DNA of 30,372 nucleotides from IMG/VR virus record IMGVR_UViG_3300020044_006527, positions 1-30,372 of that record; one strand, 5' to 3'. The position numbers and the translations under genes are program-made. Position 1 is the stretch's first letter, and every line of letters begins with the position of its first letter. Below are positions 1 through 20,233 of this stretch, piece after piece. This stretch comes from a virus. Taxonomy: Duplodnaviria; Caudoviricetes. Under the pieces are notes generated by a model. It saw nothing but the letters and a program-made list of their open reading frames with translations. It was not told the origin of the DNA and did no database searches.

Positions 1-3
1 AAC

Positions 4-291
4 ATGGCGAAAGTAGTCGCCGAATGCAAACCCTGCGGTGCTCGATTGTCGAAGGATCGAAAGCCACCCGAGAAGACATGCGCCCCGTGTCACGATCGTG
101 TCATCGATGATTCGATCACGCACGCACACGAACCACGCCGAAGCAGCGAACGCAATCAAGAAGCATTCGCGCTGAGGTGGCGCGGCTATGAGTGGCATAC
201 GATCGCAACGATGCTTCAGTATCCTTCGGAGCAGGCCAGCCAAGCAGCTGCTCGAGACTATGCGAAACGAAAGGGATTCGTCCTGCCATGA
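4..291 (+). CDS. Zn-ribbon + HTH-like putative DNA-binding protein (copy B)
   Basis: CKPC...CAPC then AFALRWRGYEWHTIATML helix-turn-helix-like segment; 6 aa differences from 4616..4903. Confidence 0.7.
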   Translation: MAKVVAECKPCGARLSKDRKPPEKTCAPCHDRVIDDSITHAHEPRRSSERNQEAFALRWRGYEWHTIATMLQYPSEQASQAAARDYAKRKGFVLP

Positions 292-554
292 GTACGCTGA
301 TGCCTAGTGGACGCGCCGCCGAGTCGATGAGTAGCCTTGATCGTGTGATGAGTCTCGCTTACGAGTACGGCTATCGCGTTGGCTTACAGCTCGGCGCGCA
401 TGGTCGGGTTGTCATGCATGTTCGCGACATGGAAGGCGACAACAAGGTAATCGCCGTGATCTCTGACACGATTGAGAATGCTGCGAATGTTTTGTTTGAT
501 CGAATTCTAAAATCGGGGTATGTCCCCCGGGATCGTTTTTTGGGGGTGGGGTAG
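288..554 (+). CDS. Hypothetical phage protein, 88 aa (copy B)
   Basis: ATGA overlap with previous stop; protein identical to 4353..4619 despite synonymous DNA changes. Confidence 0.8.
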   Translation: MSTLMPSGRAAESMSSLDRVMSLAYEYGYRVGLQLGAHGRVVMHVRDMEGDNKVIAVISDTIENAANVLFDRILKSGYVPRDRFLGVG

Positions 555-748
555 TGGGTATCCGGCAGGTCTGCCTAGGTTGTGGCTCGCTGACGACGAA
601 TGGTTCGCGTTGCGCATCTTGTGCTGCTCGGAGGGAGAGGGCGCGTAGCCTGAGCCGTCCCCACTACCGAGGCGACTACCAGACGAGGGCGAAGCAGGTG
701 CGAGCGGCTGCGAATAACGATCCGAATTGTGTTTGTTGGTTGTGTGGA
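554..748 (+). pseudogene. HNH endonuclease 5' fragment, cut before the catalytic DH motif
   Basis: Matches the 4353 gene up to CVCWLCG, then the DNA switches to Rpf-like sequence. Confidence 0.85.
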
Positions 749-929
749 TCAACTCTCGCCGCGCGATCAGCTCTGGGCCTGCTTCTTCCTCTTCTGGAAA
801 CACGCGCGCATTGGACAACACCTGCGTGGCTCGTACGAGGCGGGGCAACGCTACGGCTCGACCGTTTGGGACGTACACACACAATTCGGCTTCTGGGGCT
901 TCGCAGCTGACGGCGAGACAATCGCATGA
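745..929 (+). pseudogene. 3' fragment of Rpf-like transglycosylase gene
   Basis: DQLSPRDQLWACFFLFWKHARIG...DGETIA matches the C-terminus of 9134..9820. Confidence 0.85.
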
Positions 930-1027
930 ACGCAGACACACTCCTCAACATCCTCGTATGGGGACTCGTCGTATTTACCATCATCGTCCTGATCGTTGAG
1001 TACGCGCGACACCGAGGCGCGAAGTGA
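926..1027 (+). CDS. 33-aa single-pass membrane peptide
   Basis: MNADTLLNILVWGLVVFTIIVLIVEYARHRGAK; ATGA/GTGA overlaps; conserved at 9036..9137. Confidence 0.7.
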   Translation: MNADTLLNILVWGLVVFTIIVLIVEYARHRGAK

Positions 1028-1197
1028 ACGCCGAAACGTGGCGCATCATGCGCGCACTCGTCCAGGCTCGCCGCGAATGCGAGCAAGAACTGCGCGTACG
1101 CCGCGGTATGAATCCACTCCTCTATTGGAGCGCTCGGCGACGATCACTAGACGAAGCCATCAGAATTGTCAGAGGACTTGAGCATCATGACGCTTGA
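1024..1197 (+). CDS. Hypothetical basic protein, 57 aa
   Basis: MNAETWRIMRALVQARRECEQELRVRRG...; coupled to upstream stop; conserved at 8869..9039. Confidence 0.7.
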   Translation: MNAETWRIMRALVQARRECEQELRVRRGMNPLLYWSARRRSLDEAIRIVRGLEHHDA

Positions 1198-1261
1198 AGC
1201 ACTCGGCGGATGCCTCCTACTTGTTCTACTTGCCATCATTCTCACGAAAGGGAACTTCTAG
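1187..1261 (+). CDS. 24-aa hydrophobic peptide
   Basis: MTLEALGGCLLLVLLAIILTKGNF; fills the gap exactly; conserved at 8805..8879. Confidence 0.55.
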   Translation: MTLEALGGCLLLVLLAIILTKGNF

Positions 1262-1262
1262 A

Positions 1263-1496
1263 ATGACCACTCTGACCATTCTCAGCACGCTCGGAAAGAA
1301 GAAATACCTTGAGGATGTCCTACTCAGCATCCTCGCAAAGCATGACGGCCTGACCGACGAACAAATTGCAAAGCAAACCGTAAGCCGGCTGAACCGGCTC
1401 TATTCTCATGCCGTCATCGATGGGACAGACTTCATTCTCGTCCCCGCCGATCAGAAACCACACCCGACCACCAATGAGGAAGCACTAGCAGCATGA
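1263..1496 (+). CDS. Hypothetical phage protein, 77 aa
   Basis: AAAGGGA RBS before ATG 1263; near-identical protein at 8570..8803. Confidence 0.75.
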   Translation: MTTLTILSTLGKKKYLEDVLLSILAKHDGLTDEQIAKQTVSRLNRLYSHAVIDGTDFILVPADQKPHPTTNEEALAA

Positions 1497-1795
1497 CCAC
1501 CATTGACGAGCTCCGCGCGAAGCGCGATGTTTGGCCCACAATCGCCGAACACATCCCACAAGCAATCAACCGGTGCCACTACGCACTAGACGAAATCCTC
1601 GAGAATCCTGATCTCATGCAACACCTTGAGCGCAAGTTCCGCAAAGGCGAAGCCGAACACGGCGGCAAATGGATGACACACGCCGACTCGTCCTGGCTCA
1701 TCGCAGAAGCAGCAGAAGAAATCCTCGACTTCATCCTCTACAACGCCATGTACCAGATCCACACACAAGCGATGAATGAGGAGACGGGAATTTGA
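1493..1795 (+). CDS. Hypothetical protein, possibly all-alpha NTP pyrophosphohydrolase-like
   Basis: RKGEAEHG...EAAEEILDFILY acidic helix motif; homologue at 8271..8573; function tentative. Confidence 0.65.
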   Translation: MTTIDELRAKRDVWPTIAEHIPQAINRCHYALDEILENPDLMQHLERKFRKGEAEHGGKWMTHADSSWLIAEAAEEILDFILYNAMYQIHTQAMNEETGI

Positions 1796-1944
1796 CTCCG
1801 CGCGACATCAGCGAAGAACACGACCGGTATCGCCTTGCTCTAGAGCAGATCGAACGGATGAAACGCACACCACGCGCCTACCGACACACCAAATTTGGTG
1901 ACCTCATCAAGATCGCACAAGACGCACTCCGCATCGAAGAGTAG
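1792..1944 (+). CDS. Hypothetical protein, 50 aa
   Basis: MTPRDISEEHDRYRLALEQIERMKRTPRAYRHTKFGDLIKIAQDALRIEE; conserved at 8122..8274. Confidence 0.7.
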   Translation: MTPRDISEEHDRYRLALEQIERMKRTPRAYRHTKFGDLIKIAQDALRIEE

Positions 1945-1954
1945 AAAGATCACA

Positions 1955-3715
1955 TTGCACACCACCACTACGCCAGCTGCGCGAGCAGCATTCGACTACA
2001 TCAATGGCAATGCTTGGGTCTTATGCGCCGTCAATCCTGACAAGCGACCCCTAGGCTCGTGGAGCGTAGGCGGAACCAATCGATACGACTATCGCAACGC
2101 CGAGAACCTCTACGCGACAAATGCGCAAGCGTTCGGAATCATCGCAGGCGCGTCAAATCTGATCATCATCGATCTTGACAATGAGGATGCGATCAGAGCA
2201 TGGGCAACACGGTTCGGCGTACCAACCACGCGCATTGCGAACACGCCTCGAGGCAGGCACCTCTATTACCAGAATGATCCGAGCCTAAACCTCGGGCCGT
2301 CCACGAGCATCATGCCAGGCGTAGACGTACGCGCCGGAGAATCCTACGCAATCACACCACCCAGCACCACAAGCGGAGGCTCATACTCGTGGGCCAACCA
2401 GAATCCCATCGAACCACTACCCACACAACTCGTAGACGTCCTCCGCGAAACAAGCCAACCAGACCGGCGACACATCCCCGACGGCGAACCAATCCCCGAA
2501 GGCTCACGCAATGACGAGCTGTGGAATCGCGCACTCCGCGCACTCCGCGCCGGACTCAGCCACGAAGCAACCTACGGCGCCATCCGAAGCGAAGCCGAAA
2601 CCTATTGTGAAGGCACACTCACCGAACTTGAGCTAGGCGAAATCGTCACCAGCGCACGCATCTACCACGAACGCAACGACGCAGACGACGACACAAGCAT
2701 CGAAGAAATCATAGAAAACGCGAGCTTAGAACACACCGCAGACCTCGCCACCAGCCTACAACCACTCGACGTCGCAAGCATGCTCGAAACCGAGCCACCC
2801 GACATCCGCTGGATATGGGAAGGCTACTTAGCCGAAGGCACACTCAACCTCCTCCACGGAGACGCAGGCCTCGGCAAAAGCCTCATAAGTCTCGCCATCG
2901 CCGCAAAATGCACCATCGGAGACGAACTCCTAAACAAGCCGACCGCCACATGCGACGTAGCAATCATCGATGCAGAAAACAGTCACGACGAGATTCATCG
3001 TCGCATCCGCACCGCCTATGATCGCGTCAGCAACATCAACCGACTCCACTACTACCGCACCGACGCAACCATCCTCGGACAACGCGACAAAACCGCCGAA
3101 CTATTCGCCTGGATAAGCAAAACCACCAACGCGAAACTCATCATCCTCGACTCTCAACGCGCACTCTGGGAAGGCGACGAACGCGAACAATCCGAAGCCG
3201 GACGCATGCTCCGATACTTGGCACGCATCGCAGAAGCACTCAGCGTCAGCATCCTCATCATTCACCACGACACGAAAGCAGGACAATACTCCGGCAGCTC
3301 AGACATCTCAGCCGCACTCACCGGCAGCCGACTCCACCTCACACGCGCAGCAAAAACCAATGACGCCGACGCAGAAGGATGGAGCGAACGCAAACTCATC
3401 CACGCAAAATGCCGCATCGGAGCCGAACAACCAATCGAACAATTCCGCCTCGAGCTTCACAACGGAATCAACCTCATCCACGCCGGCCCGACCAGCAATA
3501 TCGACTACATCGCGCGCCTCGTCAGCTCATATGCACGCGAACACGAAGCCTGGCCGAACGTCCCCACAAGAGACATCCACGCAGAGATCGAAGAGATGCG
3601 AGAGCGCCGAACACGCGCCAACGTGTACGCGCACATGCACGGCATGGGCAGCATCGAAAGCCCTCCGAAACACGGCGAACGGCATGTCACATTCGTGTCA
3701 CAAAGTAGCCTCTAA
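1955..3715 (+). CDS. Bifunctional primase-polymerase fused to AAA_25/RepA-like helicase (allele B)
   Basis: Prim-pol motifs IIIDLD, TPRGRHLYY, GVDVRAGESYAITPPS; PriCT-like IPEGSRNDEL; Walker A GDAGLGKS, Walker B LIILDS, IIHH; TTG start chosen by alignment to allele A. Confidence 0.9.
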   Translation: MHTTTTPAARAAFDYINGNAWVLCAVNPDKRPLGSWSVGGTNRYDYRNAENLYATNAQAFGIIAGASNLIIIDLDNEDAIRAWATRFGVPTTRIANTPRGRHLYYQNDPSLNLGPSTSIMPGVDVRAGESYAITPPSTTSGGSYSWANQNPIEPLPTQLVDVLRETSQPDRRHIPDGEPIPEGSRNDELWNRALRALRAGLSHEATYGAIRSEAETYCEGTLTELELGEIVTSARIYHERNDADDDTSIEEIIENASLEHTADLATSLQPLDVASMLETEPPDIRWIWEGYLAEGTLNLLHGDAGLGKSLISLAIAAKCTIGDELLNKPTATCDVAIIDAENSHDEIHRRIRTAYDRVSNINRLHYYRTDATILGQRDKTAELFAWISKTTNAKLIILDSQRALWEGDEREQSEAGRMLRYLARIAEALSVSILIIHHDTKAGQYSGSSDISAALTGSRLHLTRAAKTNDADAEGWSERKLIHAKCRIGAEQPIEQFRLELHNGINLIHAGPTSNIDYIARLVSSYAREHEAWPNVPTRDIHAEIEEMRERRTRANVYAHMHGMGSIESPPKHGERHVTFVSQSSL

Positions 3716-3737
3716 ACATTGTGCGAATCGTCACATA

Positions 3738-3938
3738 ACTTGCACACGACTTGCACATGCACAACTTGCACATGTACAAGTGCAAGTGGAGCCGCATAAC
3801 CATGCGGGTTTGCGCCCCACTTGCACAACTTGCACAAAACCGTGTACAAGTGGGATTCTTGGCTAAACAAAGCCAAAAAATCCACTTGCACACTTGCACC
3901 TACTACGTAGGCATGCGCAAGTGCGCAAGTGCCTACGT
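3738..3938. repeat. Iteron-like ACTTGCAC cluster, putative replication origin B
   Basis: Seven direct ACTTGCAC copies (3738, 3749, 3764, 3819, 3828, 3884, 3892), one exact and two near-exact inverted copies, plus hairpins, directly after the primase-helicase stop. Confidence 0.75.
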
Positions 3939-3983
3939 TAGGCGCACGAAGTGAACCGAACAGACTGCGACAATACAACCACC

Positions 3984-4021
3984 ATGAGCAGCGACAACCA
4001 ACCCGAGCTCTACCCAATCGC
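3984..4021 (+). pseudogene. 5' fragment of the homologue of 4891..5136
   Basis: MSSDNQPELYPIA vs MSSEQTPELYPIA; identical 23-bp upstream sequence; homology stops at 4021. Confidence 0.8.
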
Positions 4022-4029
4022 ATCACGAG

Positions 4030-4353
4030 CTCGCCACGCCGGCCACGCCCATCGCCACGACGACTATTGCACGACCGGTGGGCAGGCATCAAAATCGAAT
4101 CAGGATTGCCAGGCTCAACATGATCAGCAGTCCACGGGTCGTCCACCCTAGCCGTTTCTCCACACAACCAACAAACACAATTCGGATCGTTATTCGCAGC
4201 CGTTCGCACCTGCTTCGCCCTCGTCTGGTAGTCGCCTCGGTAGTGGGGACGGCTCAGGCTACGCGCCCTCTCCCTCCGAGCAGCACAAGATTCGCAACGC
4301 GAACCATTCATCGTCAACGTTCCACAACCGAGACAGACCTGCCGGATACCCAC
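4030..4353 (-). CDS. HNH endonuclease (terminase-associated type); native stop apparently lost at junction, ORF reads on to 3712
   Basis: CLGC, CESC, CWLC, TADHV...PAHRSCNSRRG; lower coordinate approximate. Confidence 0.8.
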
Positions 4354-4619
4354 TACCCCACCCCCAAAAAACGATCCCGGGGGACATACCCCGATTTTAG
4401 AATTCGATCAAACAAAACATTCGCCGCATTCTCAATCGTGTCAGAGATCACCGCAATCACCTTATTGTCGCCTTCCATGTCGCGAACATGCATGACAACG
4501 CGACCATGCGCGCCGAGCTGCAAGCCAACGCGATAACCGTACTCGTAAGCGAGACTCATCACACGATCAAGGCTACTCATCGACTCGGCGGCGCGTCCAC
4601 TAGGCATAAGCGTACTCAT
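4353..4619 (-). CDS. Hypothetical phage protein, 88 aa (copy A)
   Basis: Identical protein to 288..554; ATGA overlap. Confidence 0.8.
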   Translation of the reverse strand: MSTLMPSGRAAESMSSLDRVMSLAYEYGYRVGLQLGAHGRVVMHVRDMEGDNKVIAVISDTIENAANVLFDRILKSGYVPRDRFLGVG

Positions 4620-4903
4620 GGCAGGACGAACCCCTTTCGTTTCGCATAGTCTCGAGCAGCCGCCTGGCTTGCCTGCTCCGAAGGATACTGAAGCATCGTC
4701 GCGATCGTATGCCACTCATAACCGCGCCACCTCAGCGCGAATGCTTCTTGATTACGTTCGCTGCTTCGGCGTGGTTCGTGCGCGTGCTTGATCGAATCAT
4801 CAATGACACGATCATGACATGGGGCGCATGTCTTCTCGCGTGGCTTTCGATACTTCGACAATCGAGCACCACACCGTTTGCACTCGGCCACTACTTCAAC
4901 CAT
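4616..4903 (-). CDS. Zn-ribbon + HTH-like putative DNA-binding protein (copy A)
   Basis: CKRC...CAPC and C-terminal HTH-like segment. Confidence 0.7.
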   Translation of the reverse strand: MVEVVAECKRCGARLSKYRKPREKTCAPCHDRVIDDSIKHAHEPRRSSERNQEAFALRWRGYEWHTIATMLQYPSEQASQAAARDYAKRKGFVLP

Positions 4904-5136
4904 GTTGGCGCATTATCTAGCAGGACGGGTCCGATCTCTTCCAACTCGGATGCGGGAAGCGTGAGGACGGTTTCTGGTTGAGCCTGGACGATGCGGAGGA
5001 TCTGCGCTGCGTACTCGCTCGCATTGTCATCGAACAGGTCGTGATCATTGTCGCGGATCGTGATCATGGCAGCGAGGAAGATGTAGGCGGACGAGTGAGC
5101 GATTGGGTAGAGCTCTGGTGTCTGTTCGCTGCTCAT
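4891..5136 (-). CDS. Hypothetical acidic protein, 81 aa
   Basis: Overlaps downstream start; N-terminus conserved at 3984. Confidence 0.7.
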   Translation of the reverse strand: MSSEQTPELYPIAHSSAYIFLAAMITIRDNDHDLFDDNASEYAAQILRIVQAQPETVLTLPASELEEIGPVLLDNAPTWLK

Positions 5137-5164
5137 GGTGGTTGTATTGTCGCAGTCTGGTCAG

Positions 5165-5387
5165 ATAGTGTCGTATGTGTTCATCATCTACATACTCTCC
5201 ATGCTATTCCTGTTCATATAGAGGATGGATAGGATGGAGAGAATGATGTAAATAAGCCAAATCCACATTGTGAGATTATGTAGAGAGTGAACATATATTT
5301 GTGTGGTTTGATTCTTTTGTGTGTTCATGCTCGTCATCCTCTCCATGCTCTACATATACGGCGATAGGATGCAATCTAAGCCAAAAG
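5165..5387. repeat. AT-rich repeat region, putative replication origin A
   Basis: CTCTCCATGCT x2, TGTGTTCAT x2, TCTACATA x2 plus an inverted copy, GATAGGATG x2; directly downstream of primase-helicase A. Confidence 0.6.
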
Positions 5388-7214
5388 TTAGGCTTCGGCG
5401 TCGTCTGGCGATACGTAGTCTGCGCTCTGATATATGTACGCTCCCCCGAATCCGCTCTTTCGCATTTTGCCTCCGATGGTTGAGATGGCGCGCTTGACGA
5501 CGGGTGGTGTCCATTCGGAGTTTGCTTTGCGAGCTGCTTCGTCTGTTTCGTTTTTTGCGCTTGCTCCGTACCGGTCTTTGAGGTACGACTCGAGCCATCC
5601 GGCGCATTCGCTGATCCTGGCGTGATCATTGACTTTGCGCTCGTCGAGGATCTCTTCTGCGTCGAGGTTGGATTCTCCGATGAAGGTTGCGCGGCTTGTG
5701 TAGACGGGCCGGCCGTGCTCGTCGATGCTGAGTTCTTCGGTGTTGATGCGATAGATCAGGCTCGGCATTTTTTTGCCGAGGTTTGTTTTGCCGTGAGCTA
5801 GGGCGACGTCTTTGCGTGCTTCGCCGTCTTCTGTTGCGGCTGCGGGTACGTGACCGACGATGAAGGCGCTGCGTGCGATTTTGTAGAGCGCGGATGATCC
5901 TCCTGCGCGCATGTATCCGCTGCCTCCTGTTGTGCGGTTGGTGTGTCCGACGGCGATGGTGGCTATGCGATGGTCGCGGCAGGCTTGTAGGTATGGGCCG
6001 AGTGCGTCTCGATTGTCTCTTTCGTTTTTGACGTCGGCGGCGAGGTGTTCGCTGATGGGGTCGAGGATGATTACTTCGGCTTTGTGGTGGAGTGCGCGTT
6101 CGATGATTTTGTCGTGTTCGCTTGATAGGTCGATCGCTTGTGCGCCGTAGTCGCGTACGCTGTCGATGGTGTGGCATCTGGTGAGGTCGACGCCGGCGGC
6201 GATGAGGCGTGGTTTTATGACGCGGATGGGGTCGTCTTCTGGTGAGGAGATTAGGACGGTTCCCCCTGCTTTGGTGATTTGTGCGATGAGTGCGACTGTG
6301 ATGGTGCCTTTGCCGACGCCTGGGTCGCCGTAGAGCATGGTGAGTTCTCCGAGTGGGAATCTTCCGTGTAGGTGTTCGCCGCGTACCCAGTCGACTGCTT
6401 CTGGTGCTGGCATGTCGGCGAAGCTAACGGTACGGATTTGCGAAGGATTGGATTCTTCGTTTGTGTTTGTTGCGAGTGTTTTGTTGTGGTGCTTTTTTGC
6501 GCTTTTGATTGTTGCGATGATTTCAGTTTCTGTGAGGTCGCCTTCTGCGTATTCTGTAACGATTGACTTGACGCATAGCGAAACTGCTGCTTCGTCCATT
6601 CCTGCGCGGAAGAGCTTTAGCGCGTAGTGGAACATTGCATCGTTGCGTTGTCCTTCGGGGATTGGGTCTCCTACTTCGATGCTGAATGTTTCGTGCTTAT
6701 TGTTCTCTTCGAGGAGTTGTCGGATGTTTTGAGGGAGTTCGGCGATGGGTAGATCGTTTGCCCAGCGGTATTCGCCGCCTAGTGTTTTGCTTGGAGGCAT
6801 GATTGCGTACGAGTTTCCTGCGCGTACGTCGATGCCTGGTAGGATCGCTGTTGATGGGCCTAGCGTTAGGTCTGTTGGTGCTTTGAAGTAGATGTGTCTT
6901 CCGCGTGGTGTGATGACGATTCGCGTTTCTGGTCGTCCGAATCGTTGCGCGTATTCGCGGATTGCTTGTTCGTTGTCGAGGTCGATGATGATGATTCCGC
7001 TCGCGCCAGCTACGAGTCCGAATGCGTTGGCGTTTCCAGCGTTTGAGAAGACGAGTTCGCTGTTGCGATCGTTGTATCTGTTCGGGTCGCCTTCTTGTCC
7101 CCATTCGCCGAGTGGTCGCTTGTCTGCTCCGACGGCTACGAGCGTCCATCCTTGCGCGTTGATGTAGCCGAACGCTGCTCGTGCTGCTTCGGTTGTCTTC
7201 GGATGCTCACTCAT
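5388..7214 (-). CDS. Bifunctional primase-polymerase fused to AAA_25/RepA-like helicase (allele A)
   Basis: IIIDLD, TPRGRHIYF, GIDVRAGNSYAIMPPS, IPEGQRND; Walker A GDPGVGKG, Walker B VIILDP, GSSALYKIARS. Confidence 0.92.
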   Translation of the reverse strand: MSEHPKTTEAARAAFGYINAQGWTLVAVGADKRPLGEWGQEGDPNRYNDRNSELVFSNAGNANAFGLVAGASGIIIIDLDNEQAIREYAQRFGRPETRIVITPRGRHIYFKAPTDLTLGPSTAILPGIDVRAGNSYAIMPPSKTLGGEYRWANDLPIAELPQNIRQLLEENNKHETFSIEVGDPIPEGQRNDAMFHYALKLFRAGMDEAAVSLCVKSIVTEYAEGDLTETEIIATIKSAKKHHNKTLATNTNEESNPSQIRTVSFADMPAPEAVDWVRGEHLHGRFPLGELTMLYGDPGVGKGTITVALIAQITKAGGTVLISSPEDDPIRVIKPRLIAAGVDLTRCHTIDSVRDYGAQAIDLSSEHDKIIERALHHKAEVIILDPISEHLAADVKNERDNRDALGPYLQACRDHRIATIAVGHTNRTTGGSGYMRAGGSSALYKIARSAFIVGHVPAAATEDGEARKDVALAHGKTNLGKKMPSLIYRINTEELSIDEHGRPVYTSRATFIGESNLDAEEILDERKVNDHARISECAGWLESYLKDRYGASAKNETDEAARKANSEWTPPVVKRAISTIGGKMRKSGFGGAYIYQSADYVSPDDAEA

Positions 7215-7669
7215 TTACTTGCCTTACCTGTTGCGACTCCGGTCATCTGGTGCCAGAGTCGATGGTGATGCTCACAGAGCTGGACGGTCGGATAGTCAGT
7301 CGACAATTGCCAATCGATTGAAGATGGGAAGATATGATGAGTTTGGCTGAATCTCTCCTTGCATGACTTAATTTCGCATGGCGCGCCGTCGTGTTCTTTG
7401 ATCGTGGCGATTGCTTCTTGAAGTTGTTTGGGTACGCGTAGTGCTCCGCTTCTTGAGCGGCCACAGTTGTCGCAGAAGAGTTTGTAGAACATCCTTCCGT
7501 CGATTTGTCGAACGCCGCCGATGCCTGTGTCGGCTGATCGGCATCCGCATGGTGATGCGGAGAGGAGTGGTTCTAGATTCGCTTGATGATTGTTCTCGAG
7601 CATCCATTCAAGAAGCTCGTCGCCGATACGCAAAAGGCGTGTGGTCTTGGTGAGGCTTTTAGCCATCAT
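7211..7669 (-). CDS. Zn-finger/HNH-like protein
   Basis: CGC, CDNC, CEIKSC, THHIFP...LCEHHHRLWH; ATGA-coupled to primase. Confidence 0.65.
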   Translation of the reverse strand: MMAKSLTKTTRLLRIGDELLEWMLENNHQANLEPLLSASPCGCRSADTGIGGVRQIDGRMFYKLFCDNCGRSRSGALRVPKQLQEAIATIKEHDGAPCEIKSCKERFSQTHHIFPSSIDWQLSTDYPTVQLCEHHHRLWHQMTGVATGKASK

Positions 7670-7750
7670 GTCTCCATTCTCTAGATGCGCCTGCTAGGCG
7701 TCCGGTTTGGCCGGTGTTGTGATGATACACCCACGGTTGCATGACTCTAC

Positions 7751-7783
7751 AAAGACGACGACCGCCCCGAAGGACGGCCGTCG
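7751..7783 (-). terminator. Intrinsic terminator-like hairpin
   Basis: CGACGGCCGUCC-UUCG-GGGCGGUCGUCG followed by UCUUU on the minus strand. Confidence 0.7.
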
Positions 7784-7838
7784 CTAGCAGGCGCAGGAGA
7801 GAACAGGAACCCTGCGCTTCTGATTGTAGTGAATCGGC

Positions 7839-8111
7839 TCACGTCTTGTCGTTGCTTGTGTGTTCCTCAATGTAACGACTGAGTTTGTCTCCGTCGATGA
7901 TCATTTGTGCGCTTCTCAAATACTCATCGTGAGGCATTGCGCTCTTGCGGATGATGATTACTTCCTGATTGTGCGTGTTGTCGTATGTCTGGATATTGAT
8001 CTTGCTTTTGCGAGCTACTTTGCGCCAATGTCTGCGGATCTGTTTGGCGTGCGTCTCGTCTCGGTAAGGCTCTGAGAATGAGAGGACAGAGAGGAGAAGA
8101 TCTGTGTCCAT
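7839..8111 (-). CDS. Hypothetical protein (only in copy A)
   Basis: ORF in operon orientation; start could be TTG 8132. Confidence 0.6.
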   Translation of the reverse strand: MDTDLLLSVLSFSEPYRDETHAKQIRRHWRKVARKSKINIQTYDNTHNQEVIIIRKSAMPHDEYLRSAQMIIDGDKLSRYIEEHTSNDKT

Positions 8112-8121
8112 TGCGAGCGTG

Positions 8122-8274
8122 TCACTCTTCAAGGCGTAGTGCCTCCTGTGCGATCTTGATGAGGTCGCCGAACTTGGTGTGTCGGTAGGCGCGTGGTGTG
8201 CGTTTCATGCGTTCGATCTGCTCGAGGGCGAGCTTGTATCGTTCGTGTTCTTCGCTGATGTCGCGCGGACTCAT
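8122..8274 (-). CDS. Hypothetical protein, 50 aa
   Basis: Homologue of 1792..1944. Confidence 0.7.
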   Translation of the reverse strand: MSPRDISEEHERYKLALEQIERMKRTPRAYRHTKFGDLIKIAQEALRLEE

Positions 8275-8573
8275 ACGCCTGTTTCCTCATTCATTGCTTG
8301 CGTGTGGATCTGGTACATGGCGTTGTAGAGGATGAAGTCGAGGATTTCTTCGGATGCTTCGGCGATGAGCCAGGACGAGTCGGCGTGTGTCATCCATTTG
8401 CCGCCGTGTTCGGCTTCGCCTTTGCGGAACTTCCGCTCGAGGTGTTGGAAGAGTTCCGGGTTTTCGAGGATTTCGTCTAGTGCGTTGTGGCACCGGTTGA
8501 TTGCTTGTGGGATGTGTTCGAGGATTGTGGGCCATACGTCACGCTTGGCGCGGAGCTCGTCAATGGTGGTCAT
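8271..8573 (-). CDS. Hypothetical protein, possibly all-alpha NTP pyrophosphohydrolase-like
   Basis: Homologue of 1493..1795. Confidence 0.65.
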   Translation of the reverse strand: MTTIDELRAKRDVWPTILEHIPQAINRCHNALDEILENPELFQHLERKFRKGEAEHGGKWMTHADSSWLIAEASEEILDFILYNAMYQIHTQAMNEETGV

Positions 8574-8803
8574 GCTGCTAGTGCTTCCTCATTGGTGGTG
8601 GGGTGTGGTTTCTGATCGGCGGGGACGAGAATGAAGTCTGTTCCATCGATGACGGCGTGCGAGTAGAGCCGGTTTAGTCGGCTTACGGTTTGCTTTGCAA
8701 TTTGCTCGTCGGTGAGGCCGTCACGTTTGGCGAGGATGCTGAGTAGGACATCCTCGAGGTATTTCTTCTTTCCGAGCGTGCTCAGAATGGTCAGAGTGGT
8801 CAT
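8570..8803 (-). CDS. Hypothetical phage protein, 77 aa
   Basis: Homologue of 1263..1496; RBS present. Confidence 0.75.
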   Translation of the reverse strand: MTTLTILSTLGKKKYLEDVLLSILAKRDGLTDEQIAKQTVSRLNRLYSHAVIDGTDFILVPADQKPHPTTNEEALAA

Positions 8804-8804
8804 T

Positions 8805-8879
8805 CTAGAAGTTCCCTTTTGTGAGGATGATCGCAAGTAGAACAAGTAGGAGGCAGCCGACGAGTGCTTCAAGCGTCAT
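8805..8879 (-). CDS. 24-aa hydrophobic peptide
   Basis: MTLEALVGCLLLVLLAIILTKGNF; homologue of 1187..1261. Confidence 0.55.
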   Translation of the reverse strand: MTLEALVGCLLLVLLAIILTKGNF

Positions 8880-9039
8880 GGTTGAGTCCTCTGACGATTC
8901 TGATGGCTTCGTCTAGTGATCGTCGCCGAGCGCTCCAATAGAGGAGTGGATTGAGGCCGCGGCGTACGCGCAGCTCTTGCTCGCATTCGCGGCGTGCCTG
9001 GACGAGTGCGCGCATGATGCGCCACGTTTCGGCGTTCAC
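8869..9039 (-). CDS. Hypothetical basic protein, 56 aa
   Basis: Homologue of 1024..1197 with an in-frame 1-codon indel. Confidence 0.7.
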   Translation of the reverse strand: MNAETWRIMRALVQARRECEQELRVRRGLNPLLYWSARRRSLDEAIRIVRGLNHDA

Positions 9040-9137
9040 TTCGCGCCTCGGTGTCGCGCGTATTCAACGATGAGGACGATGATGGTGAATACGGCGAGTC
9101 CCCATACGAGAATGTTGAGGAGTGTGTCTGCGTTCAT
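9036..9137 (-). CDS. 33-aa single-pass membrane peptide
   Basis: Homologue of 926..1027. Confidence 0.7.
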   Translation of the reverse strand: MNADTLLNILVWGLAVFTIIVLIVEYARHRGAK

Positions 9138-9820
9138 GCGATCGTCTCGCCGTCAGGAGCGAAGCCCCAGAAGCCGAATTGTGTGTGTACGTCCCAGACG
9201 GTCGAGCCGTAGCGTTGTCCAGCATCGTACGAGCCGCGCATGTGTTGTCCGATGCGCGCGTGTTTCCAGAAGAGGAAGAAGCACGCCCAGAGCTGATCGC
9301 GCGGCGAGAGTTGATCCATACTCGACGGCCACGAGGCGTGGCGGATCTCTTGAAAATTGGCGATGGTTAGCCCGCATCCTCCGGGGAACGAATAGTTTCC
9401 GCGTTGTTTCCATGCGACAGCAGCCCACCCGTATCCCTTGGCTGGTTGTTCGCGTTTGCAGATTTCAAGGTAGACCTTGTATCCGGGCGGCAGGTTTGCA
9501 AGTTGCGGCTTGTATGTGACGCGCTGCGAAGCATCACCCGATCCGATACGGATCGTCTTTGCGTTTGCGTAATCAGCGCCGGCGAGTCCGATGAGGTAGA
9601 CGATGATGACGAGTGCGATGCCGATGAAGAGTCCGCGCGTGAAGCTCTTTGCGGCGCGCTTCTCATTCTTGACGGCTTCGCGGCGTCGCCCGATTTCGAT
9701 GCCTACTTCTCGAGCGAGGATACGATCGCGAGCGTTGCGTCGTTCGATCTGCTCGGTCGTCCATTCCCACTCGCCGCACGGTTCACTCGTCGGCTTGGGC
9801 TTCGTCGTTGTGTTGCTCAT
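9134..9820 (-). CDS. Membrane-anchored Rpf-like (lysozyme-fold) transglycosylase
   Basis: AAGGGAGG RBS; TM helix GLFIGIALVIIVYLIGL; YLEICKRE, FPGGCGL, DQLSPRDQL, TVWD resemble Rpf IAQCE, YGGLQF, ASREEQI, GAWP. Confidence 0.65.
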   Translation of the reverse strand: MSNTTTKPKPTSEPCGEWEWTTEQIERRNARDRILAREVGIEIGRRREAVKNEKRAAKSFTRGLFIGIALVIIVYLIGLAGADYANAKTIRIGSGDASQRVTYKPQLANLPPGYKVYLEICKREQPAKGYGWAAVAWKQRGNYSFPGGCGLTIANFQEIRHASWPSSMDQLSPRDQLWACFFLFWKHARIGQHMRGSYDAGQRYGSTVWDVHTQFGFWGFAPDGETIA

Positions 9821-9869
9821 TGTGAGCCTCCCTTGGTAGTGGTGCCGATTAGGTTCGGCTCTTCGGGGT

Positions 9870-10394
9870 TTAGTCCTGCAAGGAGTCCGCACTATACGCC
9901 GCGCGTGCTGCGTATGCAATGCAGATCGCATCAGCCGAGTCCTGGTCGAGCGTGTCGGCCCATCCACTCTGAATGCACGATATGTCGCATATACGCACGG
10001 AATATGACATGGCGCCCTCTTTGCCTTTACGCGGTAAAGATAGGAGTGCGCGCCATGATTGGGGCATGACGCGCTCAATCGTTGCGTACGGGAAGCTCGT
10101 CAGGGCGAATGCTTCGGCGTGACCAATGCAGCGCGCGTGGTTGAGGCTGCCTTGCCGGTTCGGTCCGAGCCATGCGTCTTCGATGACGATCGCGCGTGTC
10201 TGCTCATGCGTGATGCGTTCGATGCGTCGTGCTTCGTCACGGATTAGTTTCCAAGCGTCACGCCGATCCGCCAAGCCCTCTTTGGTATGGATCGTGGCGA
10301 ATGCGAGGAGCGTTTCGTCGTAGATGATCGCGTACGCGGTGCGGAGGAGGCTCGTGTCCAGGCCGATGATGATGCCAGACCGAGCCTCCCCCAT
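9870..10394 (-). CDS. RuvC-like Holliday junction resolvase
   Basis: IIGLDTSLLRTAYA, IVIED, PQSWR, DSADAICIA acidic triad pattern. Confidence 0.85.
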   Translation of the reverse strand: MGEARSGIIIGLDTSLLRTAYAIIYDETLLAFATIHTKEGLADRRDAWKLIRDEARRIERITHEQTRAIVIEDAWLGPNRQGSLNHARCIGHAEAFALTSFPYATIERVMPQSWRALLSLPRKGKEGAMSYSVRICDISCIQSGWADTLDQDSADAICIAYAARAAYSADSLQD

Positions 10395-10396
10395 GA

Positions 10397-10903
10397 CTAG
10401 ACCGCCGTCTGTTCGAGTTTGATGCTGCGTCGCTTCTCGGGGAGATGCGGCTCGAGCTCGTCCGCCAATCCGGCCGGACACGTTTCGATGTAGTTCTGGA
10501 TCTTCGCCGGCGTTACGTGCGCCTGGAGGGGCGCGATGTTATCGACGGCTTCCCACGGAATCGCACCATCCGCCGCGCACCGCTCCATGATCTCGCGGAT
10601 CCGCTGAGACGCGATGCCACTAACGCTCGCACGACTGATGCTCTCCTTCGCGGTGCCGTACTCCGTAATGATCGGACCCGCTAGAGAGTGAATCCGCACG
10701 CCGAGCTCTGGCTCAACGCTCGTGCTGATCATGCGAGCAAGATCACGCAGATGCTGCGCGACGAGTCCCCACGCGACGAGATCATCATTCGACGCATCCG
10801 CCACCGGCAGAATCTCACCGTCTAGCGTGATGAGTTCGCCATGCTCTGCGAGTCCACGCAGTTGCGTGATGTTCGCGGGAGGAACGTACGGAACGAGACT
10901 CAT
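10397..10903 (-). CDS. Hypothetical phage protein, 168 aa
   Basis: TGATG-coupled to upstream gene; fills the operon. Confidence 0.8.
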   Translation of the reverse strand: MSLVPYVPPANITQLRGLAEHGELITLDGEILPVADASNDDLVAWGLVAQHLRDLARMISTSVEPELGVRIHSLAGPIITEYGTAKESISRASVSGIASQRIREIMERCAADGAIPWEAVDNIAPLQAHVTPAKIQNYIETCPAGLADELEPHLPEKRRSIKLEQTAV

Positions 10904-11337
10904 CAGAACGGAATGTCGTCGTCGGTCGTCGGCGCGACACTACTGACGGGAGCCGTCGTCGGCGTGCTCGTCATGTCGGGGATCGTGGTTGGCGTTGTCG
11001 GAGCGTTTGTGAGCTGCCAACCACTCCTGCCGTTGGATTCCCAGCGTCCGAGGTAGAACGGGCCGACGGCATCAGCACCATTGGCGACGGCGATGCTGAT
11101 CCGCTTTGCCTGTTCGATGCGTGACGCGCTTGCCTGGAAGGCTAGGCGAGCATCGTCCTTGCCCTTCTCTTTGATCGTGAAGATCGTCTGCGTCCCGTAA
11201 TTCCCTTCCTGCTCGGCGATCGCGCCGGTGATGTAGAACGGGCGCTGCTCGGTGTGTAGGGCGGCTTTGTCGTCCTTGTCGAGATAGACGCCGCCGCCTC
11301 CTGCGAGGATCTCATCTGCGCTAACAATGTTTGCCAT
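10903..11337 (-). CDS. Putative single-stranded DNA-binding protein
   Basis: GGGAGG RBS; beta-rich core, T/P linker, C-terminal DDDIPF tail. Confidence 0.65.
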   Translation of the reverse strand: MANIVSADEILAGGGGVYLDKDDKAALHTEQRPFYITGAIAEQEGNYGTQTIFTIKEKGKDDARLAFQASASRIEQAKRISIAVANGADAVGPFYLGRWESNGRSGWQLTNAPTTPTTIPDMTSTPTTAPVSSVAPTTDDDIPF

Positions 11338-11418
11338 GACTATGTGCCTCCCGGCTTGTCGGGCTGTAGTGGAAAGCCGAACCATACACGACGGTATCGG
11401 ACGCCTCTATATTTTTTG

Positions 11419-11458
11419 TGTCTAGGCACTTGACAAGGGGATGGTTTGCCCCTATCTT
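11419..11458 (+). promoter_or_regulatory. Sigma70/SigA promoter with overlapping inverted repeats
   Basis: TTGACA (11430)-17 bp-TATCTT (11453); TGTCTAG-gca-CTTGACA and AGGGG-N8-CCCCT dyads. Confidence 0.8.
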
Positions 11459-11494
11459 TTGTGCATGGCAACCACCACTCAAGGAGAAGCAGCC

Positions 11495-11779
11495 ATGAAT
11501 ACGACCGACAAGATCTACGACGCCAGCATCAATCGTTGGGTAGACGCGGCAATCATTCGCGAAGTAACGGCGACCGAGATTCTGCATCTCGCATCAAAGA
11601 TGCCTTACGCAGCTGACGAAGATGCTCGGAACTCCTACGATTATCTCTCCAATCGCTTCGGATTCTGGCCTTTCCGTAACGCCACGGCAATCGAAGGCCC
11701 AGAGGTGCTCATGGAGCGATCTCTGATGATCCGCGCCGCTGCCGAGAACGCCGCCATCTCTCAGGAGGTGGCGGCATGA
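11495..11779 (+). CDS. Hypothetical early protein
   Basis: AAGGAG RBS at 11481; alternative in-frame leaderless ATG at 11465. Confidence 0.75.
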   Translation: MNTTDKIYDASINRWVDAAIIREVTATEILHLASKMPYAADEDARNSYDYLSNRFGFWPFRNATAIEGPEVLMERSLMIRAAAENAAISQEVAA

Positions 11780-11964
11780 GCGCCATCTACCTCAACGACA
11801 ATGGGCGCTGCACGTGCTCTGATCATGCTGGCGAGTATCTCCGCAAGAGCATCACGGAGAAGCCCGACGCGCAGTTCCACAAGACTCCGCTCGAAACGTG
11901 GGAACGCTTTGATGCTGACGATATTCGTTCGTATGGTCTTGATTGTGACGAGTGCGCACGATGA
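11776..11964 (+). CDS. Small Cys/His Zn-binding-like protein
   Basis: CTCSDH...CDEC; GGAGG RBS; ATGA overlap. Confidence 0.7.
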   Translation: MSAIYLNDNGRCTCSDHAGEYLRKSITEKPDAQFHKTPLETWERFDADDIRSYGLDCDECAR

Positions 11965-12143
11965 GCGAGTGGTTGTATGAGCCGGTTGTCTGGTCGGATT
12001 CGTGGCGGCGTGGCGAGTGGATTGTGTCGCGTCATCCGCGCCGACATAACGGGTATTACGTCGTGTCGCATCGTGGAGAAGAAGTAGCGTTGAAGGATTC
12101 GCTCGAGTTGGCAAAACGATTCGTGGAAAGGCAGACGACATGA
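11961..12143 (+). CDS. Hypothetical protein, 60 aa
   Basis: ATGA overlaps on both sides. Confidence 0.65.
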   Translation: MSEWLYEPVVWSDSWRRGEWIVSRHPRRHNGYYVVSHRGEEVALKDSLELAKRFVERQTT

Positions 12144-12382
12144 CGAGTAGCATGACGATCCGTGACGAGCTCGCGAAGTCTGCCGCGTTTGTCGCGAGTG
12201 CGGAGAGTGTCCTGGATGCTGCGAAGCGTGAGCGTGACGCGCTAATCATCACCGCAAACATTGGCGGACTCTCGCTCAGAACGATTGCCGACCTTGCTGG
12301 CGTGTCGCATCAGACGGTGGCGAATGTGGTGGCGGCACGGGCTGCCACCACTACGAGCCAGCCCGTGCCACCCGTCGAATAG
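12140..12382 (+). CDS. Helix-turn-helix DNA-binding protein
   Basis: GLSLRTIADLAGVSHQTVANVV. Confidence 0.85.
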   Translation: MTSSMTIRDELAKSAAFVASAESVLDAAKRERDALIITANIGGLSLRTIADLAGVSHQTVANVVAARAATTTSQPVPPVE

Positions 12383-12398
12383 TACGCGATAATGCGGG

Positions 12399-12466
12399 TG
12401 GCGGATTCCCTCCCCCGCCAGCCGGGTCCGCGACTCCTCGATTGAGGCGCGGACCCGGCACCCTCT
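12399..12466 (+). ncRNA. Two-hairpin structured element (candidate sRNA and/or terminator)
   Basis: TGGCGG/CCGCCA stem with ATTCCCTCCC loop; perfect 12-bp GCCGGGTCCGCG/CGCGGACCCGGC stem; upstream GTGCCA-17-GATAAT. Confidence 0.4.
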
Positions 12467-12470
12467 CGCC

Positions 12471-12500
12471 TTGACGCGGACCAATAGGTGCGACTAGAGT
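12471..12500 (+). promoter_or_regulatory. Putative promoter
   Basis: TTGACG-18 bp-TAGAGT upstream of GAAAGG RBS. Confidence 0.5.
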
Positions 12501-12526
12501 CGGGCGACCACTACGAAAGGCACATG

Positions 12527-12685
12527 ATGAGTAACAAGCGACGCAAGCGGCTCGGCTCGGAGAAGATCCGCCGCAACCTGGAAACACGGATTCTGCGTGG
12601 ACGATTGAAGGCGGAGGCGAAGCAGCTTCGCGCTGAGGCTTGCGCGTTGCGTGTGGCTATGAGTGCTGATCGCGGGGCTGAGTAG
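12527..12685 (+). CDS. Small basic protein
   Basis: GAAAGG RBS; TAGTG overlap with next gene. Confidence 0.6.
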   Translation: MSNKRRKRLGSEKIRRNLETRILRGRLKAEAKQLRAEACALRVAMSADRGAE

Positions 12686-13110
12686 TGCAGGGGAAGCGTT
12701 CGCCGGCGGCGTTGTTGATGCGTGAGTATGGCGTGTCGACGATGATGCTTGCGCGTGTGCTGGGTGTGGGTGATTCGCATGTGTTTCGGTATACGAATGG
12801 GCATCGGCGTTTGTCGGCGGTGATGATGTCGAAGATTCGTCGCGAGTTTCCGATGGTTGCGGACGAGCTTATTGCGGCGTGTGCTGCGGCTCGAGTGTTG
12901 CGTACGGCGGAGCCTGCGAGGATTGTTCGGGTGCGTGCTCCGAAGCGGCGTTGGCAACCTGTCGCGCAGGCTGCTGATCCTGATTGGGATGGCGAGCTCT
13001 ACACGATCGAAGAATGGCGATCCTTGTTTGGAGCGCCTGGCTCTTCGCAGGGTGTGAGTGGTCGCGTTGAGGGATTCTTTCCGACCGAGCCTTGCTTCTT
13101 AGGCGAGTAA
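12685..13110 (+). CDS. XRE/Cro-like HTH protein
   Basis: LMREYGVSTMMLARVLGVGDSHVFRYTNGHRRLS. Confidence 0.7.
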   Translation: MQGKRSPAALLMREYGVSTMMLARVLGVGDSHVFRYTNGHRRLSAVMMSKIRREFPMVADELIAACAAARVLRTAEPARIVRVRAPKRRWQPVAQAADPDWDGELYTIEEWRSLFGAPGSSQGVSGRVEGFFPTEPCFLGE

Positions 13111-13111
13111 C

Positions 13112-14113
13112 CTAGTCGAGCCAGATGATGTATTCGGCGGTGACGCGTCCCGCGTCCGGATCGATGAAGTGGAGGCGTTGCGATGGTAGTCCTTTTGCGG
13201 CTACGAACTCGCGCGCATACTCACTACCCGATTCGGTGCTGCCGGTCATGAAGACGCGACCACCATTCGCAATCTGAAACTGCGACACGTGATGATAATG
13301 CCCGAGGTATGCGTCTTGGAATGGTTCGGTAACGCCCGAGCTCCACGCCGTCGTTTTACGAATAATCCCGAATGCCGGGGTATTCCCGCCAAAGCTCTTG
13401 ATCTGATCACCATGCACGAGCATCGCGCGATACGCGCCAGCCTCGACAATCTCGTACCAACCCGAAGGCTCGTGCCAGACGAGGCGCTCTTGCCGCAGCT
13501 TGTCTCGGACGATCCGACACAGAATGCGATCCCAATTGTCGGGAACGCCGTCTGTCTTCTTTCCGATTCTTCCGTGATTACCGGCGACCTCATAGACGCG
13601 GACCGTTTTGAAGTGCTGAAGTAGCTCGAGGAGGACGGCTTCGATCAGATTCGCAGCCTCAAAGACCATCCCAAATAGCGTCGAATCAACCTCGAATGGT
13701 TGTCCTGGGAACGTCTGGATGTTCTCGATCATGTCGCCACCGAGCATCACGATGATCTCATCGACGGGGTGCGCGGCACGTTGGATCTCCGTCAGGCGAA
13801 GCGTCTTCGCAACGACACGCATCACGCGCTCTTTGCAGACCTCCGTAGAGTACGAGCTTGTCTCCTTGCCGAGTTGCCAATCCGTCAAGTGCAAGAGGGC
13901 CGTTTCTGCGCCGGCGCGTTTATCTCGCTTAGGAGGCTTCACACTTGGCGGATATCCAGCGATCCGCGCAGCATCATGCGCGGCACGCTCAACGGCTTCG
14001 ATGAGATCCGCGTTCTTCGCCTTCGCCTTCGCAAGTTGTCGCTGCAAACGTTGGCACGTTCGCGCGAGATCCTCATCCTTCTCGGCCTGTTCGATCTCAT
14101 CACGAATACTCAT
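13112..14113 (-). CDS. Calcineurin-like metallophosphoesterase with N-terminal coiled coil
   Basis: HLTDWQLG, GGDMIE, GNHG, HGD, GHYH motifs. Confidence 0.88.
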   Translation of the reverse strand: MSIRDEIEQAEKDEDLARTCQRLQRQLAKAKAKNADLIEAVERAAHDAARIAGYPPSVKPPKRDKRAGAETALLHLTDWQLGKETSSYSTEVCKERVMRVVAKTLRLTEIQRAAHPVDEIIVMLGGDMIENIQTFPGQPFEVDSTLFGMVFEAANLIEAVLLELLQHFKTVRVYEVAGNHGRIGKKTDGVPDNWDRILCRIVRDKLRQERLVWHEPSGWYEIVEAGAYRAMLVHGDQIKSFGGNTPAFGIIRKTTAWSSGVTEPFQDAYLGHYHHVSQFQIANGGRVFMTGSTESGSEYAREFVAAKGLPSQRLHFIDPDAGRVTAEYIIWLD

Positions 14114-14337
14114 ACGCACATCCTGCGATGCCGGCGGATCTGCTTACCCTCAGCATTGATCTGATAGCCTCGCTCGCCGAGTGCTCGAGCAATAGCAGTC
14201 GCGGCAATCGTAGAATCGTCCAGGCACTCTACGAGCTCTGCCGCATCCTCTTTACTCATATCGCTAATGCAGTAGCAGACGGCGCATTCGTAGCGTGGCT
14301 TCGTGTTCTCGCGCATGATGTCGTCTCGCAATCCCAT
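14110..14337 (-). CDS. Small putative Zn-binding/HTH-like protein
   Basis: AGGAGGGG RBS; CAVC...AIARALGERG...HRRMC; ATGA-coupled to the phosphoesterase. Confidence 0.7.
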   Translation of the reverse strand: MGLRDDIMRENTKPRYECAVCYCISDMSKEDAAELVECLDDSTIAATAIARALGERGYQINAEGKQIRRHRRMCV

Positions 14338-14389
14338 CAGATCCCCTCCTGGTCGCCACTAATCGTACGCCACTCGTGACGATTGTCCT

Positions 14390-15100: not shown

Positions 15101-15273
15101 GAGCGGCGAGGATCGGTGACAACATAACCCGCGACTGCGATGATGATCGTGATGAGAGCGCCCTGGACGAGCTCGGGAATCTCAAAGCCTGCAAGGCTCG
15201 CGCCCCACACGATAATCGTGACGAGTGCCGCAGCGAGCGTACTAGCAGCAACCTTCGGACTGACATTCTTCAT
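15097..15273 (-). CDS. Holin, 58 aa, two TM segments
   Basis: MKNVSPKVAASTLAAALVTIIVWGASLAGFEIPELVQGALITIIIAVAGYVVTDPRRS; GGAGG RBS; GTGA overlap with endolysin. Confidence 0.8.
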   Translation of the reverse strand: MKNVSPKVAASTLAAALVTIIVWGASLAGFEIPELVQGALITIIIAVAGYVVTDPRRS

Positions 15274-15292
15274 AGCGTTCCCTCCTCAGGGG

Positions 15293-16077: not shown

Positions 16078-16098
16078 GAGCGTATTCTACCGTTTCTG

Positions 16099-17301: not shown

Positions 17302-17305
17302 GACG

Positions 17306-19624: not shown

Positions 19625-19647
19625 ACGTCTAGTCTACCGGTTCTCGC

Positions 19648-20229: not shown

Positions 20230-20233
20230 CACA

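Follow-up and report, generated by a model that had tools for sequence, protein, structure and literature searches.

A probably chimeric virus record points to exchangeable primase-helicase and repeat-array modules in a freshwater siphophage

The virus record IMGVR_UViG_3300020044_006527, analysed here at its complete length of 30,372 nt (the window), comes from an uncultured freshwater siphophage of a lake and carries two primase-helicase genes, repA and repB, each followed by an array of short repeats (iterons). With a probability of roughly 0.85, the record is a chimera composed of pieces of two strains, A and B, of one siphophage, whose natural genomes would each carry a single Rep with its own array as one of several allelic modules. 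An earlier note on this DNA had described two replication cassettes facing each other between inverted homology arms and had proposed an invertible two-replicon switch, with a chimera of co-occurring strains as the fallback; it is the fallback that now emerges as the best reading. The exchange of modules between strains is real, and its principle is already known from the Staphylococcus aureus pathogenicity islands (SaPIs) and from PLE (an element that resembles phage-inducible chromosomal islands).

Layout of the record

Read on the minus strand from 30372 to 4014, the window presents a siphophage gene order: a cut portal gene, protease, capsid, glycosyltransferases, tail, endolysin, exonuclease, RuvC-like resolvase, small genes, RepA, three small genes and an HNH nuclease. 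Self-comparison of the window confirmed the two homologies on which the earlier note was built, 742-1942 against 9321-8124 (92.3% identity over 1201 nt) and 3958-4026 against 5162-5095 (88.4% over 69 nt), together with their boundaries: homology extends to the 50-aa gene's stop codon and restarts 23 nt before the ATG at 3984. A third homology had been missed, in which 1-748 matches 4906-4159 at 94.8%, and it changes the layout. Positions 1-4021 form a strain B piece in permuted order. It opens with a 95-aa gene, an 88-aa gene and the first half of an HNH gene, which runs into junction J1; beyond J1 come a 228-aa gene's tail, the upstream genes and RepB with its repeat array, and 13 codons of an 81-aa gene then lead to junction J2. 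The left 'arm' has no natural left end; it begins inside the 228-aa gene, fused to the half HNH gene.

1..748, plus strand: first piece of strain B, with the 95-aa gene, the 88-aa gene and the 5' half of a packaging-type HNH gene (from homology to 4906-4159 and translations)
745..748: J1, where the HNH gene, broken off behind its CWLCG motif, continues in the same direction and out of frame into the 228-aa gene tail; 4-nt microhomology
745..1944, plus strand: strain B genes upstream of rep (tail of the 228-aa gene, then genes of 33, 57, 77, 100 and 50 aa), formerly the left 'arm'
3961..4021, plus strand: conserved leader and first 13 codons of the strain B 81-aa gene, cut at J2
4014..4021: J2, inversion join of the 81-aa gene (B, plus) to the last HNH codons (A, minus), with 8-nt microhomology
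4014..4272, minus strand: strain A HNH endonuclease gene (PHROG HNH matches), its last codons and stop lost at J2; true end taken from the relative contig L004
4353..5136, minus strand: strain A 81-aa, 95-aa and 88-aa genes, the conserved right flank
8122..9318, minus strand: strain A genes upstream of rep, the right 'arm', running unbroken into the 228-aa gene and the rest of genome A
9134..9820, minus strand: 228-aa gene of genome A

Synonymous and non-synonymous codon differences in five shared genes number 13/1, 15/6, 12/6, 14/6 and 9/0. Because these differences are mostly synonymous, the two copies come from separate strains, as the earlier note had concluded for the arms, and sequencing error is ruled out as the cause of the arm divergence. 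The DNA between the arms, which the note had called different, is not wholly so: in the primase domains, 1975-2411 and 7188-6743 are 66.7% identical in DNA, and the proteins 59%.

Junctions and the inferred genome end

Both junctions cut genes internally. At J1 the match to the HNH donor runs up to 748 and that to the 228-aa donor starts at 745. At J2 the 81-aa gene can be followed to 4021 (in A and in the relative contigs L004 and L005), and from 4014 onward the sequence agrees with the HNH end of L004. Among random breakpoint pairs in window sequence, at least 4 nt are shared at a frequency of 0.019 and at least 8 nt at 2e-4. The joins most likely arose through microhomology-primed template switching during library amplification: J2 would have formed close to the end of a molecule, by an inverting switch from one related template to another, and J1 would belong to the rarer same-direction type. 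The overlooked third homology and the mid-gene microhomology junctions are features by which chimeric viral records can be flagged.

The HNH gene is followed by a conserved hairpin of a C-run and a G-run (L004 11641-11697; L020 14136-14193), with a conserved 10-nt motif 29 nt beyond it. Contigs L004 and L020 both end 30 nt past the hairpin, and at this end point the motif begins in six others (L001, L016, L017, L019, L025 and L030). From position and a Walker A motif, the two genes past the 10-nt motif in these six loci are presumably terS and terL. A cos-like genome end after the HNH gene is likely on this sequence pattern, and J2 lies 75-82 nt from it; HNH genes are reported to adjoin cos and terminase often (PMC3592412). 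Nothing in the window corresponds to the ~2.8 kb that separate HNH from portal in L001 and L016; the portal gene is truncated by the record end, and ~2.8 kb of terminase region is missing. A scan of 39 open reading frames (ORFs) against Pfam and PHROG gave no match to terminase, integrase or recombinase families.

Contigs from other samples and relatives

A search listed 24 metagenome runs, in which the share of the sampled words never exceeded 0.32, and eight lake runs were compared at the junctions. In six of the eight, contigs at J1 continue in normal order into the 228-aa gene or an intact HNH gene (joint 762-9408 in X4 and X5, joint 748-4158 in X2 and X8; loose ends at 745 in X2, X8 and X17 and at 756 in X11). 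At J2, too, six of the eight runs show the normal order, with contigs that carry on into either the 81-aa gene or the hairpin behind HNH (X5 with joint 4021-5098; loose ends at 4014 in X7, X2, X8 and X17 and at 4022 in X2 and X11). Among the contig pieces listed from the eight runs, none bridges J1 or J2, and the exact junction words had no match in a viral contig collection, which may omit the window's own record. Both cassettes are covered in all of four runs; cover of cassette B is absent in X8 and patchy in X2 and X17, and was not used as evidence.

Nine relative contigs span the region from Rep to the 81-aa gene (L001, L004, L005, L016, L017, L019, L020, L025 and L030), and all nine carry one Rep there in the same gene order, so that the two-cassette genome is not borne out among relatives. 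The count excludes L003, L006-L015 and L022, in which the cassette is not spanned in this order of genes (L010 and L012 run off their contigs). Duplicated arms were found in none of 12 relative contigs tested.

Primase-helicases and candidate origins

1955..3715, plus strand: RepB, with Prim-Pol, PriCT-1, AAA_25 helicase and C-terminal winged-helix-like domain
3716..3960: putative origin B, with ACTTGCAC-type iterons in both orientations and the shared AGCCAA motif
5160..5387: putative origin A, with degenerate CATTCTC/CTCTCCAT-like repeats in both orientations, GC 0.39 and two AGCCAA motifs
5388..7214, minus strand: RepA, 608 aa, with the same four domains as RepB

The RepB frame is open from 1895, and its start was placed at TTG 1955 from homolog lengths of 584-593 aa. 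That each cassette holds a primase-helicase was rightly observed in the earlier note: Prim-Pol, PriCT-1 and AAA_25 are present in both Reps and in all six relatives scanned (PriCT-1 below cutoff in L025), and no Pfam match to SF3/D5 helicase families or RepA_N was found in the Reps of the window or of the relatives scanned. We take the AAA_25 helicase to be RecA-like. The RepA helicase belongs to a different clade, with 18% identity to that of RepB; overall there are two primase clades and three helicase clades, of which four combinations are present. A group of ~650-aa proteins (P0051-P0068) shows ~50% identity to the RepB helicase region, and several of them have Toprim in place of Prim-Pol; judged by domain content, Toprim on a B-like helicase is a further primase-domain exchange.

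AlphaFold models of the last 120 residues of RepA and RepB have a helix-strand-helix-helix-wing core, with a predicted local distance difference test score of about 90 over the core. Their top Foldseek matches are mostly winged-helix proteins such as Fur, MecI and ESCRT-II, none at E 0.001 or better (best 4.5e-3 and 0.12). An ESM Atlas search with the RepA C-terminus gave nothing informative (best score 0.77). In cultured phages, 212 records matched, every one at less than 60% identity and none covering 80% of RepA. A scan of genome contigs yielded at least 21 loci, with a best identity among the matches listed of 26%, in a metagenome-assembled genome of Actinomycetota, and gave no host assignment.

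In ten distinct modules (L005 and L030 having been dropped as duplicates of L004 and L019), a repeat array in both orientations follows directly after the Rep stop codon. The top 7-mer exceeds 500 dinucleotide shuffles at p < 0.05 in nine of the ten (0/500 in six; 0.026-0.036 in three). The repeats that the earlier note reported in B are clear: ACTTGCAC occurs 7 times in the window, always inside 3738-3899, and at up to one mismatch origin B holds 13 copies, against a background maximum of 2 in 85 windows. Those reported in A are weaker, yet they share the L001 iteron word, which occurs there 7 times at up to one mismatch (background maximum 4 in 90 windows), and the A and L001 arrays are 79% identical over 62 nt. 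The ten modules hold eight iteron types, one shared by A and L001 and another by L018 and L019. The L025 word also occurs 5 times in L020 at up to one mismatch, and the B and L025 arrays retain a common 26-nt scaffold. For L018 the origin comprises 120 nt only, and the array of L020 was delimited manually.

AGCCAA is present in eight of ten otherwise unrelated arrays (expected 0.15 per 250 nt) and is a candidate shared priming or loading signal; its sites in the window lie at 3859-3876, 5255-5260 and 5379-5384. The GC content of the arrays ranges from 0.39 (A) to 0.59, and the inverted iterons would allow hairpins. The arrays likely act as origins of replication.

Exchange of Rep-array modules

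Near-identical flanks hold unrelated primase-helicases with unrelated iteron arrays, and module swapping between strains is supported for this reason, from sequence comparison, in two lineages. In A, B and L004, flank proteins are 92-98% identical, whereas the helicases share 13-18% and the C-termini at most 10% (between-clade identities below ~20% being treated as unalignable), and the iterons differ. In L019 and L025, the right flank is 92% identical and the C-terminus 9%. In run X2, a 3288-nt contig links 1942 with 3958 by way of an L004-type cassette. The converse arrangement, different flanks around the same module, is found in L018 and L019 (left flank 58%, C-terminus 87%, array 97%) and in A and L001 (flanks 58-63%, C-terminus 65%).

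Other pairs combine a related helicase with a diverged C-terminus and a different iteron, namely B/L025 (78% and 43%), L004/L020 (68% and 20%), L016/L019 (60% and 25%) and A/L017 (58% and 41%). Across the ten modules, the iteron word tracks the C-terminal winged-helix-like domain more closely than it does the helicase. The claim in the earlier note that enzyme and cognate array swap as one module is thus upheld by relatives and lake contigs for those two parts; the extra ORF, the hairpin element and the nuclease-like gene that it had placed in cassette A do not belong to the module.

The Rep-plus-origin unit is most likely an allelic module in the phage population, one per natural genome examined, probably exchanged by homologous recombination in the conserved flanks, with the 50-aa gene on one side and the leader of the 81-aa gene on the other. 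The C-terminal domain is predicted to bind the inverted iterons just downstream of its own gene with specificity for them, after which the helicase would load and open the DNA and the Prim-Pol domain would prime. We propose that the C-terminal domain and the iterons must match and therefore travel together, and that primase and helicase domains can reshuffle besides. A literature search on replication-module swapping found no paper on this phage group, which is no proof that none exists. The natural panel of primase-helicases and matched iteron arrays on near-identical backbones permits a direct test of co-evolution between a small winged-helix-like domain and its origin, and it indicates that strains of an abundant, uncultured lake phage exchange their predicted replication specificity.

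Alternative explanations

Several observations weigh against a chimera of two single-Rep strains with swappable modules. Two junctions within 3.3 kb are required; J2 joins two strains and J1 is same-direction, unlike the mostly intramolecular chimeras published for multiple displacement amplification (MDA); and piece B nearly closes a 4.2-kb circle (~190 nt missing), as a natural mini-circle would. The junctions were compared only in contigs of other samples, and the junction-word scans possibly exclude the window's own record. L020 carries an extra stand-alone 177-aa Prim-Pol gene without a helicase (3568-4101, minus), which represents the other primase clade and lies ~7 kb upstream of the rep locus, on the strand opposite to it. 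As for the modules, the top 7-mer of origin A is not significant by itself (shuffle p = 0.19), the 90% identity of the L019 and L025 left flanks is based on 40 residues alone, and no Foldseek match for the C-terminal domains reached an E value of 0.001 or below.

Microhomology would also suit illegitimate joins in vivo, and the record could then be a real dead-end molecule from a cell co-infected by A and B, possibly one derived from a 4.2-kb B mini-circle that replicated and was closed at J1. Such a circle, with upstream genes, Rep and origin, would resemble a defective interfering genome; piece B does keep Rep and origin intact and is almost circular, and co-infection is plausible given the coverage of both cassette types in four runs. 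We nevertheless regard this origin as unlikely: piece B lacks the inferred packaging end and the terminase and would thus be unpackageable by the normal route, and J1 is absent both among the listed pieces of the eight runs and in viral contigs. An assembler mis-join through a strain-variant graph, with no chimeric molecule behind it, would fit a population that is highly microdiverse and fragments into many short contigs. The overlaps of 4 and 8 nt are shorter than usual assembly words, and longer identical runs (up to 71 nt in the arms and up to 91 nt in 1-748) lie away from the joins, which makes a mis-join quite unlikely too.

The natural two-replicon genome, in which a crossover in the 1.2-kb arms would invert 1945-8121 and switch the expressed Rep, has in its favour two intact Rep-origin units flanked by inverted, 92% identical arms. 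It is nonetheless highly improbable. The contigs leave both junctions in normal order, and each of the nine spanning relatives carries one primase-helicase, so the switch is unsupported; moreover, its junctions are mid-gene microhomologies, its arms have diverged like separate strains, and no recombinase match is available among the 39 ORFs to drive it. In both orientations the terminase, an intact end of the HNH gene and the inferred genome end would be lacking, and the inverted form would leave a 13-codon stub behind RepB. A chimera of two strains, each with one Rep and its own array, accounts best for the record.

The variable slot and a conserved non-coding element

7211..7669, minus strand: 152-aa Cys/His-rich nuclease-like ORF in a variable slot, 39% identical to the slot gene of L020, whose Rep type differs
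7664..7843, minus strand: optional conserved non-coding element of ~180 nt, with a promoter-like box, a GC hairpin (7755-7784) with a short U run, and a second -10-like box
7839..8114, minus strand: 91-97-aa ORF in the variable slot

In B, L001 and L004 the slot between the 50-aa gene and rep contains nothing, and in L002 a DNA methylase occupies it. The element stands there by itself in L017 and L025, together with an HNH gene in L016, and with one further gene in L007 and L019. L020 has a homolog of the 152-aa gene and no element; A has all three, ORF, element and 152-aa gene. Since the slot varies independently, 'cassette A' consists of two variable units. The extra ORFs were rejected as parts of the Rep-origin module because L001 has an A-type Rep without them and L002 a B-type Rep behind the DNA methylase; the 152-aa gene was rejected as part of the RepA module on account of its L020 homolog beside another Rep type. 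The N6/N4 DNA methylase gene occupies varied positions, in the slot before rep in L002 (5656-6948) and also in L014, L015 and L017, and its slot start recurs as loose ends in runs X1 and X5.

The 'HNH-like' gene of the earlier note exists as the 152-aa ORF; its label rests on motifs, with no match in Pfam or PHROG. The 91-97-aa ORF had neither a Pfam or PHROG match nor a tblastn match in any relative locus compared. The hairpin called a terminator is likewise present, and a terminator scanner made no call there. The element that contains it recurs in L007, L010, L011, L016, L017, L018, L019, L025 and L030, at 71-81% identity, in phages that share 55-80% identity between their proteins. A 12-nt inverted repeat (7686-7697/7784-7795) would pair over a long range, in a helix that extends to the next gene's ribosome-binding site. 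The fold z score is -4.4; across eight sequences 96% of cells are paired and 7 of 26 pairs show double changes (0/500 shuffles), a result biased by the derivation of the structure from the same sequences. An Rfam search of 1-10500 returned one chance match (E 0.8) and none for the element, and a pattern scan found four loci, all on contigs already among the relatives. The element may act as a small RNA on the same strand, or as an attenuator, that controls the slot gene or rep. It bears a likeness to P1 C4 and P4 CI RNA; the literature matches listed for same-operon antisense RNAs contained nothing useful.

A more speculative synthesis, which we consider doubtful as a whole, would treat origin specificity as a diversified 'self' code in a wild lake-phage population, with at least eight iteron types sharing one scaffold, every one of them recognised by its matching C-terminal domain and exchanged between strains that co-occur. 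Conflict among co-infecting relatives would be the driver, the slot nucleases and methyltransferase would be origin-directed weapons or shields by analogy with Odn for PLE, and 7664-7843 would be a same-strand small RNA shutting off translation of the slot gene or rep.

Other gene content

9319..30372, minus strand: rest of genome A, with RuvC-like resolvase, exonuclease, endolysin, tail, glycosyltransferases, capsid, protease and portal (family scans)

Between the capsid and head-tail adaptor genes, 22324-26300 (minus) holds three glycosyltransferase-like genes, an oxidoreductase and a hexapeptide-repeat transferase, a block that suggests virion glycosylation. The prohead protease (27682-29352, minus) is fused to an N-terminal HAD-like acid phosphatase domain, by a match below the Pfam cutoff. 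A 198-aa ORF near the lysis genes (15481-16077) has low GC (0.43) and no family match.

Comparison with known systems

Invertible phase-variation segments such as Mu G and P1 C employ a dedicated invertase and short crossover sites, and each genome holds both alternatives. The present record differs in having no recombinase match, arms of diverged coding DNA that start mid-gene, and relatives with neither both alternatives (0/9) nor duplicated arms (0/12). It is closer to MDA chimeras, of which 85% are reported to be inversions, with 2-21 nt of complementarity in 77% of junctions (PMC1855051). Those joins are mostly intramolecular, joins between molecules being rarer (PMC1855051); the 4- and 8-nt overlaps seen here fall within that pattern, and J2 similarly inverts and drops the downstream region.

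Marine phages can carry different replication genes on a shared morphogenesis backbone (PMC8528129). There, as far as the available excerpt goes, multi-gene modules differ between distant groups and origins are not mentioned, whereas here one gene and its putative origin differ between strains whose flank proteins are 92-98% identical. In the archaeal plasmid pRN1, ORF904 unites Prim-Pol, helicase and winged helix, and an essential origin region lies directly 3' of the gene (PMC4234260), as the candidate origins do here; unlike the present Reps, pRN1 has an SF3 helicase and an essential stem-loop instead of an iteron array.

SaPI PriRep5 is reported to use a C-terminal winged helix to read 6-12 opposed iterons directly after its gene (PMC9371898). 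The arrangement here is similar: in SaPI PriRep5 and here, a primase is fused to a helicase, and short iterons in opposite orientations stand immediately downstream of rep. The C-terminal domain here is winged-helix-like in its predicted fold, with no structural match at E 0.001 or better. The central AT-rich region described for SaPIs may have a counterpart in A (array GC 0.39), and the other arrays range up to GC 0.59. Unlike SaPIs, the present Reps pair an AAA_25 helicase with Prim-Pol, and unlike satellites, this phage has its own capsid, portal and tail genes and no integrase match among the 39 ORFs. The Rep modules thus belong to neither the SaPI nor the pRN1 family, as helicase family and element type differ.

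A parallel for the swapping itself is PLE of Vibrio cholerae, in which origin and origin-binding domain co-vary and cross-cluster with their flanks, indicating repeated swaps, and in which cognate pairs were shown by experiment to be required (PMC8263062). Here too, candidate origin and predicted binding domain swap together across backbones. The PLE binding domain is described there as an N-terminal RepA_N that reads ~30-bp iterons of two types, whereas in this phage group a C-terminal domain on a primase-helicase is matched with iterons of 7-11 nt, in eight types among ten modules.

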